Source of the DNA: a virus
Lineage: Duplodnaviria; Caudoviricetes
Direction: 5' to 3' (one strand)
Length of the DNA: 58,514 nucleotides
IMG/VR virus record: IMGVR_UViG_3300032157_000372
Coordinates: 1-58,514 of that record
Part shown: one piece after another, positions 3,445 through 12,663 of the stretch
How positions within the stretch are numbered: the first letter of the stretch is position 1
How the letters are laid out: the number at the start of each line of letters is the position of its first letter
Notes under the pieces: generated by a model
What the model saw: only the letters and a program-made list of their open reading frames with translations
Database searches by the model: none
Told to the model about the DNA's origin: nothing
Program-made: the position numbers and the translations under genes

Positions 3445-3852
3445 TCAGAACCCGCCTTCATCGGTATCAATGCCCTTGATCGGCTTTTCTGTAGGCTGCC
3501 CAACCCTCGGACCAAAAACGTCCGAAACTTCACTACATTTTTCGGGCACGGACCCGAGCATTTCGAAATGCTTAGGTTCCAGCGTGACGCTCAGGTCTTC
3601 CCACCGGTCAGGCTCGCCAGTGCGATTGTGAACCGTCAAAACAAACTTGCCGTCATTACGGACCAGCACCTCAAGAGCAACATGGTCCGTTTCCACGATG
3701 GTCGCGACCAGCGCGCCAAACCGCTGTCTTTCAAACTTGGCGGCCGAAGTCGTCATTTTCATCACCCGTGGTTGTTCGGTCGCGGGGTCAAAGTCCCGCT
3801 CCCATTCGGTGCAGCCTGTGCTGTTCGATCCCATCGCGTTGTTCTCCATCAA
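3445..3852 (-). CDS. IS passenger hypothetical protein
   Basis: 135-aa ORF inside the IS, ending 3 nt before the transposase start; start uncertain. Confidence 0.5.
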   Translation of the reverse strand: MMENNAMGSNSTGCTEWERDFDPATEQPRVMKMTTSAAKFERQRFGALVATIVETDHVALEVLVRNDGKFVLTVHNRTGEPDRWEDLSVTLEPKHFEMLGSVPEKCSEVSDVFGPRVGQPTEKPIKGIDTDEGGF

Positions 3853-5980: not shown

Positions 5981-6414
5981 CGTGGCTCCCCCTTCGACCC
6001 GCCGTTGCGGCGGCGCCATTCGCGCTCATTGTCCCAATCCGCGCTCGGCGGCCGATCGCCGTGGTGCGCGAAGGGGTCTGAATCGGCGAGCCACGTGCGC
6101 AGGCCCGAGCCCATGAGCTCGATCGCGCGCACGACAGCGTCCATGACGTGCTGCTCGAAATGGCCGAACAGGCCGTAGACGGCGAGGAACAAAAACATCT
6201 TGCCGCCGAAGCCGACGGCGCTCGCCGCCATGCCCGAGAGGTAGGCCGCGCCGATGATGGCGAACGCGCCGATCAGGGCGCGCACGGCCGTGACAATGAC
6301 GAGGCGGCGGGCAGGGATGGCGCCGTGCGCGCGGGCGATGGCGGCCCGGCGCAGCCCCCGCAACACACCCGCTCCATTGACGCTTGCGCTCATGGGGTCC
6401 CCCGCCTTCGGCAT
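5977..6414 (-). CDS. Membrane protein
   Basis: Two hydrophobic segments; packed in operon. Confidence 0.55.
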   Translation of the reverse strand: MPKAGDPMSASVNGAGVLRGLRRAAIARAHGAIPARRLVIVTAVRALIGAFAIIGAAYLSGMAASAVGFGGKMFLFLAVYGLFGHFEQHVMDAVVRAIELMGSGLRTWLADSDPFAHHGDRPPSADWDNEREWRRRNGGSKGEPR

Positions 6415-6417
6415 CGC

Positions 6418-6651
6418 TCAATCCGGGTATTTGGCGAGGTGCGCGAGCGCCCAGGATTCCATTGCGTTGGCCTGCGCGAGCGCCTCCTCGGTCTTGGCCT
6501 TGGGCGTGCCGCGCAGCTCGGCCTCGAAGGCCCACGTGCGCACGATCATCGGCGAGAGCTTGTCCTGGGCGCGCAGCACGAACACCGGCTCGTCGTCGGC
6601 CGCCTTGTTGAGGCAGCTATTCGGGTTCTGGATCTCTTCGCGTTTCAGCAT
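6418..6651 (-). CDS. Conserved phage hypothetical protein
   Basis: SCLNKAADDEPVFVLRAQD motif; RBS GAGAGG. Confidence 0.75.
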   Translation of the reverse strand: MLKREEIQNPNSCLNKAADDEPVFVLRAQDKLSPMIVRTWAFEAELRGTPKAKTEEALAQANAMESWALAHLAKYPD

Positions 6652-6664
6652 GTGGTTCCTCTCG

Positions 6665-6708
6665 CTTGCCCATCGCGACGCCTCCGGCTACCGCGATGGG
6701 GCCCGCTA
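6665..6708. repeat. 44-bp palindromic dispersed repeat, copy 1
   Basis: Identical to 20117-20160; stem CCCATCGCG/CGCGATGGG. Confidence 0.9.
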
Positions 6709-6719
6709 TGATCGCGGGC

Positions 6720-6961
6720 GTTGTGGACGATCGACCGGAGCCGGCGGCTTGGCTCACCGCGTGGAGAGCTACCCCGCTCGCCGGCTCCGGTCTCGTTTTG
6801 CCGAAGGCGAACCATCGACAAAGTCCGAAGGCAGCCCTTCAGCCCCCGGCCGTGCTCTGCGCGGCTCCCGCAACCAGTTGCCGGGCGGGAGAAGGCACCC
6901 GCTGGCTTCCGAGCCGCGCAGGTGCTCACCCCGTCGACGCCGTGCGCGTCGATCGCGTGAG
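6720..6961 (-). ncRNA. Candidate structured RNA in leftward early transcript
   Basis: 14-bp perfect stem 6733-6746/6779-6792, two cUUCGg tetraloops on the minus strand, further stems. Confidence 0.45.
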
Positions 6962-7192
6962 AATTGACATCGCCATCTTGAGCGTGCTGCTCGCAGCGTC
7001 GCGGCGCCGGCGCAGGCGGTAGAGCTTGGGATCGACCGCATCGAGGACGGCGGCGGCCTCGCGCATCGCATCGAGCAGGGCGCTCGCCTCGCGCCCCGAG
7101 AGCGTGACCGGCGGGTCGTCGCGGGTTGCGGCCAGCGCGTCGAGCGCCTCCTTGAGGTCGTCGGAATTGTCGGCCGTGGCGCGGATGGTCAT
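6926..7192 (-). CDS. First gene of leftward operon, Arg-rich
   Basis: ATG 7192 with AGGGG RBS downstream of PL; YRLRRRR motif. Confidence 0.65.
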   Translation of the reverse strand: MTIRATADNSDDLKEALDALAATRDDPPVTLSGREASALLDAMREAAAVLDAVDPKLYRLRRRRDAASSTLKMAMSILTRSTRTASTG

Positions 7193-7218
7193 CGCGGTGC
7201 CCCTGATAAGGTTCGCTT

Positions 7219-7270
7219 GAGTTAATGCCAATTAGGCATAATGTCAAGATCAGAGATGCCCAACTGGCAT
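7219..7270 (-). promoter_or_regulatory. PL promoter with two operators
   Basis: TTGACA (-35; 7247-7242 on minus strand); palindromes ATGCC-AATTA-GGCAT 7225-7239 and ATGCC-CAACT-GGCAT 7256-7270. Confidence 0.75.
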
Positions 7271-7369
7271 CGATGCCGGACGGGTGGCACTTATGGCGTC
7301 GACGGTGAACGCACTCGCAGCTAGAATTCCATCATTGAGCACAATGCATTTGCGCGCTGGGGCGGGATC

Positions 7370-7936
7370 GTGGGGAGCGTCGAGGACCGTTTGCGCGAAG
7401 CCGCTGCGGCGGGCGAGATTCTCACGATCATCTACGGCCGTGGAACACAGCCCGGCACCAAGCGCGACATCGTTCCCCTCCAGATCGTCGAAGGCGGCCG
7501 TCTCGAGGCTCGCTGCCTCGCGACGAATGCCTTCAAGACCTTCTTCGTCGCGCACCTGCAAATTGTCGACCCCGGCCACGCGGCGGCGCCTTACACGTCA
7601 AAGACTGCCTACAAGGATCTGTGGGACGTCATGGCGCACCATGGGGATGAGTTCGATCTCATCGGCTGGCATGTCGAAACGCTCGGTGATGCGATGGCGT
7701 TGCGTCGCCGGGCACCCGATGGCTCGCCCATCGGCAATGCGGTCGTGGTGATCGCGCGCCGTGCGCGGCGACCGCCTTGGATCGTCACCGGGCTCGGGCG
7801 AGCCGAGGGGTACGCCGCCCTGCGCGAGGCGGCGCCCGTGTTCGTTTCAATGGCGCGCGAGGCTGCAAGGTCGCCGCCTGCGACGACGGAGAGCGGCGGC
7901 TTCTGGCGTTATCTATGGCGACGTCTGATCGGATGA
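7370..7936 (+). CDS. WYL-like domain protein
   Basis: LREAAAAGEILTIIYGRG...RDIVPLQI...LEARCLATNAFKTFFVAHL resembles the WYL Sm/SH3-like pattern. Confidence 0.6.
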   Translation: MGSVEDRLREAAAAGEILTIIYGRGTQPGTKRDIVPLQIVEGGRLEARCLATNAFKTFFVAHLQIVDPGHAAAPYTSKTAYKDLWDVMAHHGDEFDLIGWHVETLGDAMALRRRAPDGSPIGNAVVVIARRARRPPWIVTGLGRAEGYAALREAAPVFVSMAREAARSPPATTESGGFWRYLWRRLIG

Positions 7937-7953
7937 GTGGTGGGGAGGCGACG

Positions 7954-8514
7954 ATGCGTTTTCTGGCGATTTCAATTTTTGCGCTCGCGATGGCCGGGCC
8001 GGCTCAGGCCTGGGAGTTCGAAGCCGACGAAGACCCGATGACGGACAAGAAAACCGCCGTGATCGTCGAGGCGGGCGACGGCCTTTTCGCTCCGGCGCTG
8101 GGCGCCAAATGCTGGGAGGGCGGAGAGACGCTCTTGATCTTCAACACAAACCAGCCCTATGACGCGAGTGCAAGCTATTTGCCGATGGTGCCGGTCAAGG
8201 TGCGCGTCGACAAGAACGAGATCGTGCCGCTCATCATGATCCCGCAGGAGCTCAGTGGGCGGCTTGTGTTCGCGGACAAGGCCGACGAGGACGGTGGCGC
8301 CGTGCATGAGATCCTGCTCCAGATCCGCAACGCACGTCAGCGCGTCGCCGTCGATCTCGGCTCGCAAGTCTTCCAGTTCTCGGCGAAGCGCAGCGGCAAG
8401 GCCGTCGAGAGCTTCGAGAAGACCTGCGGCCTCGACCTCGAGAAGCTCGCCAAGGCGTCGGCCGGCGACGCGACCGAGGAGGAGGTTGCCAAGAAGCCGG
8501 ACGGGTCGCGCTAG
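7954..8514 (+). CDS. Secreted/periplasmic protein
   Basis: Signal peptide MRFLAISIFALAMAGPAQA; W..EDPMTD motif; GGAGG RBS. Confidence 0.75.
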   Translation: MRFLAISIFALAMAGPAQAWEFEADEDPMTDKKTAVIVEAGDGLFAPALGAKCWEGGETLLIFNTNQPYDASASYLPMVPVKVRVDKNEIVPLIMIPQELSGRLVFADKADEDGGAVHEILLQIRNARQRVAVDLGSQVFQFSAKRSGKAVESFEKTCGLDLEKLAKASAGDATEEEVAKKPDGSR

Positions 8515-8515
8515 G

Positions 8516-9121
8516 CTATTTCACCCGCAGCGAGCGGTGTGTGGCGATGATCACGCCCTTGATGTGCACGTCCTCGGTGGCGATGTTGAGCGGGGGCAGG
8601 TTCTCGCCCGAGCTGTTGGTGATGAGCAGGCTCGGCGGCACGAACTGGCGCAGGATCGTCGTCGCCTTGAGCAGGTCCTCCGATGAGTAGACCTGCGCGA
8701 TGACCGCCTGCAGCGGCTTCACCGCTTCCACCGCCTCGGCATTGAGATCGAGAAAGACCACGTCGCCGGCATGGATGTCGGCCTGATCGAGCGCGTTGCT
8801 CGTGATCTTGTAGGGAACCACGTTGCGCCGCTTCTTCGCGAAGTGCTGCAGGATCTCGTCGTCCTGCGCGCGATAGGGCTCGGCATCATCAGAGAAGCCG
8901 ACGGCCGGCCGGGCGACGCCGTTGCCTTCGTTGAGACCAAGCACTGTCGGGACGTCCTCGCCTAATGCCATCGCGATCCTCTCGGCCAAGGGCACCGAGA
9001 GGCCGCGCTTGCCGCCCTCGATGCGCGTCAAATAGGGCTGCGAGATCCCCGCCTTCTCAGCGAGCTTCTCGACCGTCATCCCTTTCGCCGACCTCAAATC
9101 GCGAATCTTGTTTTTGGGCAT
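8516..9121 (-). CDS. CI-like XRE-family repressor
   Basis: IRDLRSAKGMTVEKLAEKAGISQPYLTRIEGGKR HTH; S24-like C-terminal region; divergent from cro. Confidence 0.85.
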   Translation of the reverse strand: MPKNKIRDLRSAKGMTVEKLAEKAGISQPYLTRIEGGKRGLSVPLAERIAMALGEDVPTVLGLNEGNGVARPAVGFSDDAEPYRAQDDEILQHFAKKRRNVVPYKITSNALDQADIHAGDVVFLDLNAEAVEAVKPLQAVIAQVYSSEDLLKATTILRQFVPPSLLITNSSGENLPPLNIATEDVHIKGVIIATHRSLRVK

Positions 9122-9156
9122 GGCGGCATTAGCCAGCTTAGCGCAGCCCACGAAAA

Positions 9157-9212
9157 GCGCCAGATTGGCATGAGATTACCTGTTGACGACTCATGCCAAA
9201 TAGGCATTAAGT
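9157..9212 (+). promoter_or_regulatory. PR promoter with operators
   Basis: TTGACG 9183-9188; ATGCC-AAATA-GGCAT 9193-9207; GCGCC-AGATT-GGCAT 9157-9171. Confidence 0.75.
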
Positions 9213-9235
9213 GGGCTCGTTGATTCCGGGAGACC

Positions 9236-9496
9236 GTGCTCGTGACGCAGCTTGCCGACTGGCTGAAAGCAAAGGGACTGACGGGGTCAGATCTCGCGCG
9301 CCTCGTCGGCTGCGACGACGCGACGATCAATCGCCTCATCCCGAAGAAGGGCAAGAAGCAGGTGCGCAAGCCGAGCTTGGATCTCGCGGAGAAGATCTGC
9401 GAGGCGACGGACGGCGAGGTGACGCCAAACGATTTCATGGATGCAGGCCCCCGTGCCGCTGCCGAAGAAGCGGACCACGAGCCTGCAACGAGTTAG
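9236..9496 (+). CDS. Cro-like HTH protein
   Basis: LADWLKAKGLTGSDLARLVGC...PSLDLAEKICEATDGEVTPNDF. Confidence 0.85.
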   Translation: MLVTQLADWLKAKGLTGSDLARLVGCDDATINRLIPKKGKKQVRKPSLDLAEKICEATDGEVTPNDFMDAGPRAAAEEADHEPATS

Positions 9497-9499
9497 GCG

Positions 9500-10150
9500 G
9501 CCCAGTTCCGTTGCCGTCTCAAGTCAGTCGCGTTTCACGTGTGGCGTCCAAAGCACCAGTCAGCGTCACCCGGCCCCGGCGCCGGGCGTGTGTGGGGTTC
9601 TGATCTCGAGCAGCCGCTCGACCTCGGACTAAGCAACCCGCGCACGCCTCGCGACGCGACCGGAAACGGTTTCGTCACCTAACCCCGCCGCATGCCGCGG
9701 CGTGTTTAGGGGCTGTCCCTAGACTTGGGCCGCCTGCCCAGGGAGCGCCCGCGCCTCGCGCGGGGGCAATGATCGAAGTGGGCGGCCATTTTCTAGGGTG
9801 GTTGCACCCCGCGGCGCCGGCGCCTCGTCAAGCGTGGCCGGCAGCGGCGGGACCTAGTGCGGGGTAGAGCAGCGGCAGCTCGCCTGGCTCATAACCAGGA
9901 GGTCGTCCGGTTCGAATCCGACCCCCGCTACCAGTTTCGCCCGAAAGGGCACGAGTGGTTTCCGCGGGGAGACCAGCGAGGAAAAGTGCCCCGCCTGACG
10001 CGTCGGACGATCGAGAGCCGGTCAGGCAAACAGCGGTGAGGCGCAGCGGCGGCAGTCGCGGTGAAGCGTAGCGCCTCAAGTGAATTCGCGCGCGCCCTTG
10101 GCTGAGAGGGCGTGTGTTGGGGGGAGTTGTTGCGTCGGCGTTCTTCCGTG
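9500..10150 (+). ncRNA. Candidate large structured RNA surrounding the tRNA
   Basis: Chain of stems, GAAA tetraloops and a multiway junction; no convincing ORF. Confidence 0.45.
9858..9933 (+). tRNA. tRNA-Met (CAT), initiator-like
   Basis: Acceptor TGCGGGG/CCCCGCT, anticodon arm CCTGG-CTCATAA-CCAGG, TTCGAAT loop, encoded CCA. Confidence 0.88.
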
Positions 10151-10208
10151 ACAGCCGCCGGTGAGATGCGTCTCGCCGGCGGCGTTGGAAGCGAAAGGGG
10201 GGAATGCC

Positions 10209-10838
10209 GTGCTGCTTGGGGGAATGGAGTTTGCCGCCGTGAGCGCCGCGCTGGCGCTCTCCGCCATCATGGCGGGGCACGGATTTGCGCGGGCCTTCCA
10301 GCGCGAGGGCGCGGCGACGCCCGCCGCAAGCCGCGAGTCGCCGTCCTTCACGACCACGCGCGACACGTTGCGCTCGATGCAGAGCGCGCCGCTCCGCTTC
10401 CGGCCGATCAACCGCCACGCCGCCGCCATGCGCTTCGTCGCCTGGATGCGCGACAACCACTACACCGATTACCTCACGGTGCCCGAGCTCGATCAGACCT
10501 ACCTCGACTTCTGCCGCGAGGTCGAGGTCGAGCCGATCGACGCGCGGGAGCTGCGCGAGTTCGTGCGCGCGCTCCCCGGCGTCTACCACGGGCGCCCGCG
10601 CATCAACGGCCCGCGCTGGGCCAGGCTGCGCCAGCGCGTCCACGTCGAGCGCCCCGTCCTCTACCGGGTTCTGTCCCAGGTCGAGCTTGAGACCGCAGGC
10701 GTCCGAGCGCGACCGGACACGGTCGGCCCCGAGCCCGGTCAGGACCGGCCATCGGCGGACGCGCGCAAAAAGCAGAGTCGCAAGAGGGTGTTGGCGCCGG
10801 CCGCCGACGTCCAGGAGCCGATGGGGATCGCCGCATGA
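10209..10838 (+). CDS. Hypothetical protein with N-terminal hydrophobic segment and possible winged helix
   Basis: GTG after GGGGGGAA; FVAWMRD...LDQTYLDFCRE. Confidence 0.6.
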   Translation: MLLGGMEFAAVSAALALSAIMAGHGFARAFQREGAATPAASRESPSFTTTRDTLRSMQSAPLRFRPINRHAAAMRFVAWMRDNHYTDYLTVPELDQTYLDFCREVEVEPIDARELREFVRALPGVYHGRPRINGPRWARLRQRVHVERPVLYRVLSQVELETAGVRARPDTVGPEPGQDRPSADARKKQSRKRVLAPAADVQEPMGIAA

Positions 10839-11343: not shown

Positions 11344-11472
11344 TGAATTTGGTTCCGAGCGTGGGGCTCGGGCAGTGAGACTGTGGATTTCAATCGAGCT
11401 TTGGCTCGGCGCGCAAGCTCTCACGCTTCGCCGCCGCGGTCAAGGCTCTCACGCGGCGGGAAACGGGGACAA

Positions 11473-12663
11473 GTGAGCGACAAGCCGCAAAAAACAGAGC
11501 GCGTGCAACGCGTCGCCGAGCTGGACGACCAGCGCTATTCGATCCAGCCGGCGGACGCCGTGCTCGACGCGAACCTCACGCTGCCGCATTTCCGCGTGCT
11601 CGGCTACATCGGCCGCGTCAACACCTCGCGCGGCTGGTGCGAGTTCTCGCAGAAGGCGTTCTCGAAGCTCACCGGCATCAACCGCACGACGATCAATCTC
11701 GCGCTCTCCGACCTCGTGCGCTGGCGCTACGTCGAGCTGCGCACGCAGAAGACGACGCGCTCCTCGTTCTGCCACTATCGCACGCTGATCGATGACCCGT
11801 TTTTCGACGCCGAGGCCGAGCACGCCGCGCGCGGGGGAGTGTCGGCTGGGGACAACACCCCCCCCGAGGGGGGAGTGTCGGCCGGAGACAACACCCCCCC
11901 GGTGGGGGGAGTGTCGGCTGGGGACAACACATGTGTCGGCTCCACACAACACGGGAGTCGGCTGGGGACGACACCCCCCATTAGTAAAGCTCGCGCGCGC
12001 TCTAGATCAGAGATCAGAGATCCTTCCCCCCCTACCCCCCGCGAGGACGCGGGGGGCTGGGCGAGTGGGTGGGGAAAACCTGTTCGTGAAGCAGTGGACG
12101 AGCTGCGCAAAAGCGCTCTCATCGCCTACGTGGCCACCAACTTCGTCGACGAGGTGCGCGGCACGCTGAGCCCGCCCAAGGGCGTCGACGGCGCCGCCTT
12201 CGTGCGCCAGCTCGCCTCCCGGCTCGGCCGCTTCGACGCCACCGTCCTCAAGGCCACCGCGCAGCACATGCTCGACACGCGCGGCCACAACCTGCCGGCG
12301 GCGCCCGAGATTGAGCGCGCCGCGGCGAGGCTCGCGAAGCTGCCGCCGGCAAGGCCTGCACCGATCGTTGTCGACGCCGCGCGCGTCGAGCGCCCGTCGA
12401 TCTTTGTCGCGCACGCCGCGGCCGTGCGCGCGCGTCTCGAGGAGCGCGTCGGGCCGGACGTGTTTGCGTCGTGGTTTGCCGATCTCGAGGTCGAGCAGAT
12501 CGCGGGCGACCTCGTCACCGTGTCAGTGCCCGTGAAGTTCGTCCGCACCTGGATCGAAACCCACTGGTCGACCGAGCTGGCGGACGCCGTGCGCGCATCG
12601 ATCGCCGGCGCCGAGCGCGTGAAGGTGATCGCGCTCGCCGAGCCGAGGAGGACCGCAGCATGA
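11473..12663 (+). CDS. Replication initiator (N-terminal wHTH, C-terminal DnaA-N-like domain)
   Basis: HTH region, internal iterons, C-terminal VGPDVFASWFADLEV...VSVPVKFVRTWIETHW. Confidence 0.8.
   Translation: MSDKPQKTERVQRVAELDDQRYSIQPADAVLDANLTLPHFRVLGYIGRVNTSRGWCEFSQKAFSKLTGINRTTINLALSDLVRWRYVELRTQKTTRSSFCHYRTLIDDPFFDAEAEHAARGGVSAGDNTPPEGGVSAGDNTPPVGGVSAGDNTCVGSTQHGSRLGTTPPISKARARSRSEIRDPSPPTPREDAGGWASGWGKPVREAVDELRKSALIAYVATNFVDEVRGTLSPPKGVDGAAFVRQLASRLGRFDATVLKATAQHMLDTRGHNLPAAPEIERAAARLAKLPPARPAPIVVDAARVERPSIFVAHAAAVRARLEERVGPDVFASWFADLEVEQIAGDLVTVSVPVKFVRTWIETHWSTELADAVRASIAGAERVKVIALAEPRRTAA
11833..11979. repeat. Iteron array / probable replication origin
   Basis: GGGGAGTGTCGGCTGGGGACAACAC units at 36-bp period x3 plus two degenerate copies. 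Confidence 0.8.

Follow-up and report, generated by a model that had tools for sequence, protein, structure and literature searches.

In phage lambda the rightward early operon leads from cro through nutR and tR1 to cII, and this interval has a leftward twin in N and tL1. The put sites of phage HK022 are paired, similar two-stem elements of ~70 nucleotides (nt). To our knowledge, little work has been done on how temperate phages of alphaproteobacteria control their early genes. The present analysis concerns a spacer behind the Cro-like gene of IMG/VR record IMGVR_UViG_3300032157_000372, a provirus record of 58.5 kb (58,514 nt, ~68% G+C) that was analysed as a whole and is called the window below; all positions without a locus name refer to it. 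The lambda gene order is kept here, but the short nutR/tR1 interval is replaced by 0.7 kb of stable, strand-specific structure together with an initiator-type tRNA. The original prediction, made from the sequence, had described positions 9500-10150 as ~650 nt of non-coding helices with an embedded tRNA on the transcript of the early rightward promoter PR, and had proposed either an antitermination RNA of the nut or put type or a non-coding RNA (ncRNA) in the manner of GOLLD and ROOL. We give about an even chance to another reading, in which the spacer is a modular, fast-evolving stretch of structured RNA that separates the immediate-early from the delayed-early genes and holds a passenger initiator-type tRNA, which would be cut from the PR transcript.

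Extent and folding of the spacer

The spacer runs from 9497 to ~10209-10223 (~730 nt), between the Cro-like gene and the first delayed-early open reading frame (ORF). Its plus strand holds only ORFs of 47, 32, 60 and 38 amino acids (aa), the 60-aa ORF spanning the tRNA, and no spacer ORF passes a filter on G+C at third codon positions (GC3). A tblastx search of the spacer against 219 loci returned the tRNA and weak, scattered GC-rich matches, and nothing else. The non-coding status of the stretch was therefore borne out, while its 3' limit had to be moved downstream from 10150.

Folding energy was expressed as a z score against dinucleotide shuffles. On the plus strand the part upstream of the tRNA (9497-9857) has a z of -4.32, with none of 100 shuffles as good, and the part downstream (9934-10210) a z of -4.23 (0 of 200 shuffles as good); on the minus strand the values are -1.67 and -2.48. 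Shuffles can flatter native sequence, and for this reason 42 native 300-nt coding segments of the window were folded as a control. These showed a mean z of -0.71 (standard deviation 1.18) and a minimum of -3.42, none of the 42 reaching -4. In the control run 9558-9857 scored -6.38 on the plus and -1.82 on the minus strand, and 9934-10223 scored -4.63 and -2.13. Among 30 segments from the other gaps of the window without a called ORF, 6652-6925 alone reached a z of -4. The structural observation of the original prediction is confirmed by these values, both halves of the spacer lying beyond all shuffles on the plus strand, and was if anything understated.

When the span of base pairs was capped at 40 nt, z became -1.75 upstream of the tRNA and -3.44 downstream; this weakening of the upstream signal indicates that mid-range helices matter there. 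The strand bias of folding arises in part from G.U pairs, three of which occur in the helix of 13 base pairs (bp) formed by 9584-9596 and 9637-9649. As modelled, the bias argues for an RNA structure of the transcribed strand and not for palindromes in the DNA. Downstream of the tRNA the spacer is rich in G (42%), with a C/G ratio of 0.60 versus 1.06 in coding DNA.

All helices that had been listed in the original prediction were found in place when read from the sequence (Table 1). Four elements are robust in the predicted ensemble, with pair probabilities (P) of at least 0.93: the hairpins 9584-9649, 9653-9676 and 9956-9975 and the rod 10034-10178, in which the arm 10034-10061 pairs with 10146-10178 at a pair probability of at least 0.93. 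Competing folds were found on both sides of the tRNA. The rod excludes the local hairpins at 10037-10078 and 10154-10183, the rod fold being better by 5.6 kcal/mol, and forcing the whole upstream junction as it was originally drawn costs 10.8 kcal/mol relative to the minimum free energy (MFE) structure. The MFE structure also pairs the purine-rich ribosome-binding run and GTG 10210 with 9948-9996. As modelled, the chain of helices is real as a property of the ensemble, and no single drawing is established.

Related prophages and the embedded tRNA

Scans with a Cro profile gave 51 genome loci, the best 80 of 101 viral loci and the best 80 of 178 metagenome loci. From these about 210 Cro-linked loci three usable syntenic relatives were obtained, L003 (a Hyphomicrobium-labelled assembly), L135 and L137. 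By tblastn L135 is the closest relative (CI 60%, Cro 72% identity). L003 shares 46% identity in CI, 40% in Cro, 40% in the 86-aa ORF and 46% in Rep, and L137 shares 50% in Cro with a partial match in CI. L136 (CI 62%) stops 118 nt past cro, and L071 and its twins match in CI at 37%. Scans of viral contigs with the CI protein and the product of the first delayed-early ORF gave no matches, and a profile of the latter found no viral-contig relatives either. L002, the sole Cro match in the single-protein scan of viral contigs, was rejected as unrelated-looking and has no tRNA. A profile of the 86-aa ORF matched one of 401 genomes of the order of L003, namely that of L003 itself. Judged by the profile scans with the 86-aa and downstream ORFs, the group is rare.

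A long spacer after cro is kept in all three syntenic relatives having sequence past cro (0.26-1 kb): it measures ~980 nt in L003, ~550 nt in L135 and ~260 nt in L137. The L135 spacer folds with z -5.75 on the plus and -4.1 on the minus strand. In L003 the part upstream of the tRNA has z -3.2 on the plus and -2.3 on the minus strand, and the downstream part -2.0 on both. Sequence is shared to a much smaller extent. Smith-Waterman comparison of the window halves with the spacers of L003, L135 and L071 gave scores comparable to those of shuffles, with the exception of a single 19-nt block, 9982-10000 in the window and 3454-3472 in L003 (score 28, 0 of 100 shuffles as good). This block is the only significant similarity outside the tRNA, and it lies upstream of the tRNA in L003 and downstream in the window. 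Between the window spacer and L135 no conserved element was found by Smith-Waterman comparison.

By eye and with MAFFT, further elements were seen to be shared with L003: a hairpin in the trailer of the tRNA (GTTTCGCCC..GGGC, with a different loop), CTTGGGCCGCC...GGCGGC followed by GGGTGGTTGC, both of which belong to the multi-branch domain 9684..9851 of the window, a GCCGCCGG...CCGGCGG hairpin before a GGGGGAATGC-like run, and a CCCGGC/GCCGGG hairpin soon after cro. The shared helices GGCCGCC/GGCGGC, GCCC/GGGC and GCCGCCGG/CCGGCGG are identical in sequence and for that reason uninformative on covariation. Hairpins of the same shape as the GAAA-capped hairpin 9653-9676, with other stem sequences, occur in the L003 spacer (read by eye) and at positions 127-148 of the L135 spacer.

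The relatives also carry modules of their own. A hairpin repeat, CGGCGC-TT-CGG[AT]T-GCCCAC..-A[AT]CCG-CGCCG, is present in 11 copies in the L003 genome, 10 of them on a 16.8-kb prophage contig and on both strands. Its sites include L003 3361-3374, 3656-3669 and 5499-5512, L135 1163-1176 and contig C21 of genome G001; one copy reaches to within 2 nt of the start of the L003 tRNA, and a compensatory change from CGGAT/ATCCG to CGGTT/AACCG is seen among the copies. The repeat is absent from the window. Direct repeats of the GAGTCCACGG or GAGTCCGCGATG types (GAGTCC[AG]CG-type iterons) occur in L003 (4100-4280) and L135 (1390-1510), and direct repeats GACACGAGAC in L071 (4100-4135). In all three loci they are placed behind a terminator of hairpin and T run and before the first delayed-early ORF, and the window has no counterpart. 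These comparisons suggest that spacer modules turn over fast, the same architecture being kept without the same sequence.

Initiator tRNA-Met is distinguished by an unpaired 1:72 position, A11:U24 and three G:C pairs at 29-31:39-41. The embedded tRNA-Met of the window, which had been proposed from the sequence, proved real by both ARAGORN and Rfam. It has the U1xU72 mismatch, A11:U24, G30:C40 and G31:C39; position 29:41 is U:A, so that two of the three anticodon-stem G:C pairs are present. By these criteria the tRNA is initiator-like, without the complete set of three G:C pairs, and it adds a further case of an initiator-like tRNA in a phage control region. Among the Cro-linked loci a tRNA after cro was found in L003 alone (3686-3762; BLAST, nhmmer and ARAGORN). 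The L003 tRNA is 88% identical, keeps U1xU72 and shows compensatory changes at 6:67, 50:64 and 51:63; these three compensatory pairs indicate that the tRNA gene is under selection. The L135 spacer is without a tRNA, which is why we take the structured spacer to be the older part and the tRNA to be its passenger.

A pattern of tRNA end plus trailer, scanned on viral contigs, gave two loci, L133 and L134, both of which were rejected as homologues. In L134 the matching trailer letters are the start of the next tRNA gene; L133 looked the same by eye, where ARAGORN called one tRNA only. Four phage tRNA-Met genes (window 9858-9933, L003 3686-3762, L133 4016-4091 and L134 3292-3367) start with T, end with ..GCT-A-CCA and have U1xU72, a biased sample because two of the four were picked by a pattern requiring the GCTACCA end. 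An unannotated tRNA-Met, 89.6% identical to that of the window, was seen in the lytic Xanthomonas phage Elanor (L222, 2290-3164), in an 875-nt gap past the large terminase gene. A passage in one study states that tRNA-fMet is generally avoided by phages where a VapC nuclease targets tRNA-fMet (PMC10264068).

Gene order and neighbouring features

The provirus is temperate and lambda-like. Its order is that of lambda: CI on the minus strand, operator, Cro on the plus strand, spacer, an ORF without family, a 59-aa ORF, the 86-aa ORF and an O-like initiator (Table 1). The spacer thus lies between the Cro-like gene and the O-like replication module, in agreement with its predicted place on a PR-type early-right unit. 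A promoter scan of the early region detected nothing and missed PR itself as well. Two soil-metagenome DNA runs carry the window contig, in identical copies with zero variants; no RNA run was found among the sequencing runs listed. The nearest Cro relatives are labelled Hyphomicrobium, Roseiarcus, Ancalomicrobiaceae, Lichenihabitans and Beijerinckiaceae, and from these labels the host is probably a soil alphaproteobacterium of Hyphomicrobiales type.

Table 1 Features of the early control region of the window (I numbers denote inverted repeats, P pair probabilities)
Feature	Position	Strand	Evidence
Second structured non-coding spacer, 274 nt, after the first leftward gene	6652..6925	-	z -4.18 on transcribed strand, 0/200 shuffles as good
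P0008, first leftward gene, 88 aa	6926-7192	-	no Pfam or PHROG family; arginine run RLRRRR
CI-type repressor gene, HTH_3 domain	8516..9151	-	Pfam HTH_3, expectation value (E) 3e-11; 60-62% identical to CI of L135 and L136
Operator inverted repeat TTGGCATGAG / CTCATGCCAA around TTGACG -35 box (9183-9188), PR-type promoter region	9165..9199	.	inverted repeat I17, 10 nt, 100% complementary; hexamer read from sequence
Cro-like helix-turn-helix gene	9236..9496	+	Pfam HTH_26 and HTH_3; seven homologues, 57-99% identity
Spacer, 5' half	9497..9857	+	structured, non-coding; plus-strand ORFs of 47 and 32 aa only
Extended hairpin, 66 nt, 13 + 5 + 6 bp, four G.U pairs	9584..9649	+	mean pair probabilities 0.94-1.00
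Two-part GAAA-capped hairpin GACG..ACCG-GAAA-CGGT..CGTC	9653..9676	+	in MFE structure, P 0.93-0.94
CCTAA/TTAGG enclosing CGCCGC/GCGGCG	9677-9710	+	read from sequence
Multi-branch domain containing the junction	9684..9851	+	closing helix CCCGCCGC/GCGGCGGG P 0.83, inner helices P ~0.5; or alternative local hairpins
Junction CCCTAGA/TCTAGGG and GGCCGCC/GGCGGCC with inner CCCGCGC/GCGCGGG	9717-9723 / 9792-9798; 9728-9734 / 9781-9787	+	inverted repeat I6 covers 9717-9734 / 9781-9798
tRNA-Met(CAT), encoded CCA	9858..9933	+	ARAGORN; Rfam RF00005, 58.2 bits vs gathering score 29
GCCC-GAAA-GGGC hairpin, 6 nt past the tRNA CCA end	9939..9950	+	read from sequence
8-bp hairpin TGGTTTCC-GCGG-GGAGACCA, one G.U pair	9956..9975 (arms 9956-9963 / 9968-9975)	+	P 0.94
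Hairpin module AAAAGTGCCCCGCCTGAC...GTCAGGCAAAC	9982..10032	+	19-nt 5' part matches L003
GCCTGAC / GTCAGGC	9993-9999 / 10021-10027	+	read from sequence
Imperfect rod, ~145 nt, 11 + 7 + 7 + 5 + 4 + 3 + 4 + 11 bp	10034..10178	+	pair probabilities 0.74-1.00; inverted repeats I4 and I11
TGAGGCGC / GCGCCTCA	10037-10044 / 10071-10078	+	read from sequence
Purine-rich Shine-Dalgarno-like run with candidate starts GTG 10210 and ATG 10224 of the first delayed-early ORF	10196..10226	+	
First gene after the spacer, hypothetical protein	10224..10838	+	no Pfam or PHROG family
O-like replication initiator	11383..12663	+	Pfam DnaA_N and MarR_2; phrog_270 and phrog_678

The product of the first gene after the spacer is, in its C-terminal part, 28-31% identical to ORFs in the same place in L003 and L135; a protein atlas gave a best score of 0.86 for it, all scores being below 0.9 and hence leads only. 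Upstream of the first leftward gene lie a TTGACA box and an ATGCC..GGCAT palindrome (~7250-7215, minus strand), the latter resembling the PR operator, and by sequence the gene is a candidate early regulator. Inside the O-like gene, 2.7 copies of a 36-bp iteron (11833-11930, tandem repeat score 168) encode a repeated GGVSAGDNTPP peptide. The ori iterons of lambda likewise sit inside its O gene, and the iterons of the window are probably its origin of replication.

A 245-aa ORF without PHROG family (7777-8514, plus strand), with a signal-peptide-like middle part, occupies the space from the leftward promoter region to cI, on the strand opposite to both. It may be an accessory gene expressed in the lysogen.

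Explanations and comparison with known systems

The spacer occupies what we take to be the tR1 position of lambda. We infer co-transcription with cro from PR, processing, and whatever functional role the spacer has. In the reading we prefer, independent stem-loop modules, with no one conserved fold, would build the spacer, and the initiator-type tRNA-Met gene would be a passenger inserted among them. The tRNA would be released from the PR transcript by RNase P and 3' processing. Its maturation would necessarily cut the transcript, so that the cro RNA would end in a structured 3' tail and the delayed-early RNA would begin with a structured 5' leader rich in G. The hairpins may slow or partly stop RNA polymerase and so set timing and dosage of the delayed-early genes, stop Rho from acting on 0.7 kb of untranslated RNA, and protect or define processed RNA ends, the long rods being possible substrates of an RNase III-type enzyme. 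A further possible role of the leader is to hide the ribosome-binding site from which the first delayed-early gene is translated. If the spacers do control read-through or processing, they would reveal how timing is achieved in a lambda-like switch whose high-G+C host has few canonical terminators, and they would be a source of compact, portable regulatory parts.

Several observations weigh against this reading. An intrinsic terminator (G+C-rich hairpin with a loop of 3-8 nt followed by a T run) was not found on the plus strand in 9000-10400; the GGCGGCC at 9781-9787 does precede ATTTTCT, yet the loop of its hairpin measures 46 nt. L003 and L135 have a hairpin plus T8 before the first delayed-early ORF, and with no such terminator in the window a role in termination is weak there. 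Either local hairpins or long rods may make up the fold, and counts of GNRA loops on the plus and minus strands (window 2/1, L003 0/1, L135 1/2) are few and mixed, with no clear strand bias. The T stem of the window tRNA has one bulged C, and a tRNA with such a stem could be impaired. GC3 is a weak coding test, since cro failed it too. Co-transcription of the tRNA from PR is an assumption, the promoter scan having detected no promoter.

The spacer might instead be a recombination scar, that is, DNA that entered at a mosaic joint along with the tRNA gene and whose leftover hairpins (old terminators or palindromes) are now functionless. The sequence is indeed unique to this provirus, in which it has one copy, and no phage-wide repeat (k-mer) family includes it. 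Modules are shuffled relative to L003, the 9982 module having its counterpart across the tRNA, and L135 has no tRNA. We nevertheless regard such a scar as unlikely: all three syntenic relatives keep a spacer in spite of compact phage genomes, stability lies far beyond the native range and favours the transcribed strand, and the leftward operon has the same feature. Should the spacer prove inert, it would be a warning that a folding z of -6 can arise without a conserved RNA family.

That leftward feature, the 274-nt spacer between the first leftward gene and the next ORF, has z -4.63 / -4.38 in the run of gap segments, and its transcribed strand contains a 16-bp rod and C-UUCG-G type loops. Both early operons have a structured untranslated interval after their first gene, which matches the tL1/tR1 layout of lambda. 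A cis-acting antitermination RNA, either of nut type, binding an N-like protein, or of put type, acting alone on RNA polymerase, would fit this layout and the position after cro, and that part of the proposal stood. The RLRRRR run of the first leftward protein, the GNRA-type loop of the GCCC-GAAA-GGGC hairpin, and TGGTTGC on the transcribed strand of both spacers and in the spacers of L003 and L071 point the same way. The signals that such a system should share did not follow. Allowing up to three mismatches to the consensus, 15 boxA-like sites were matched in the window and none in 9497-10223; no GAAA, GAAAA or GAAGA hairpin was found on the minus strand in 6400-7800; and the rightward and leftward spacers show no significant similarity (scores 17-18 vs shuffle means of 20). 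TGGTTGC shows no enrichment in the window (8 copies vs 4.8 expected, 9 of 100 shuffles doing as well), nothing is conserved with L135, and the window lacks a downstream canonical terminator to be overcome. Antitermination of this kind is judged quite improbable.

We are just as doubtful of a broader proposal, in which the spacers behind the first gene of both early operons, in the window and in related Hyphomicrobiales-type prophages, form a new, rapidly diversifying class of cis-acting RNA that governs processive antitermination or read-through and is functionally analogous to nut and put. Each lineage would then have its own set of hairpins, which would either fit a small arginine-rich early protein of that lineage or act directly on RNA polymerase. 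The role of the initiator tRNA would be to link early transcription with the capacity for translation, or with evasion of nucleases that attack initiator tRNA.

A single large dedicated ncRNA of the GOLLD or ROOL manner, placed beside the tRNA by chance, had been the other proposal. In favour of this idea, the spacer combines a large size (0.36 + 0.29 kb) with very high stability and strand-specific folding, and it adjoins a tRNA. No homologue of such an RNA was found, and the idea is now very unlikely. At gathering scores Rfam 15 recognized only the tRNA in the whole window. A cmscan of 9000-10700 at E up to 10 added five chance-level rows far below gathering scores, one of them a miRNA precursor overlapping the long hairpin, and the loci of the relatives gave only the tRNA and a chance miRNA row. 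A distant blastn search against named phages matched 318 records, none covering at least 80% of the query, and all 20 matches listed were to the tRNA part only. The non-tRNA sequence has no homologue in 213 fetched loci, and a scan of viral contigs for the junction pattern gave no locus. Five viral loci with the pattern of the 19-nt module were rejected, as their flanks looked unrelated and mostly coding by eye. When a covariance model of 9580-9680 was run on 33 related loci, no spacer gave a match, and the best match outside the spacers (E 0.15) lies elsewhere in L071. Across named phages, fetched loci, pattern scans and the covariance model, no alignable homologue of the non-tRNA spacer was found, and a literature search found nothing on this arrangement. 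Furthermore, the syntenic relatives are unalignable and carry different hairpins, and the structure is split by the tRNA and mostly local or rod-like. An origin of replication or another protein-binding region at the DNA level can hardly be credited: L003 and L135 do have iterons just before the first delayed-early ORF, but 9497-10223 has no such iterons or tandem repeats, the obvious iterons lie inside the O-like gene, and strand-biased folding favours RNA.

The modular boundary that we prefer can be set beside four known arrangements. With the cro-nutR-tR1-cII interval of lambda the locus shares a divergent repressor/cro pair, an untranslated structured interval, the delayed-early and replication genes behind it and a leftward twin. 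The spacer differs in being several times longer than the lambda interval, in holding a tRNA gene, and in having no boxA-like site, no hairpin shared by the two operons and no canonical terminator. The likeness to putL and putR of HK022 lies in structured RNA on the early transcripts, one element per early operon, and possibly in acting without a dedicated RNA family outside the own phage group. Unlike the put sites, the spacers of the window measure 274 and ~730 nt and share no significant sequence, a comparison made by sequence and not by the put fold. GOLLD and ROOL are likewise large, structured, phage-associated and found near tRNA genes, but the spacer matches neither model and has no core in common with its relatives. 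Phage-encoded tRNAs and tRNA punctuation offer a parallel in the tRNA gene inside a protein-coding operon, where RNase P processing would separate the flanking RNAs; among the 20 listed of the 318 matching phage records, tRNA-Met is 78-90% identical to that of the window. Here, however, a single initiator-like tRNA stands in the region that controls lysis and lysogeny in a temperate phage and not in a lytic-phage cluster as in L134.

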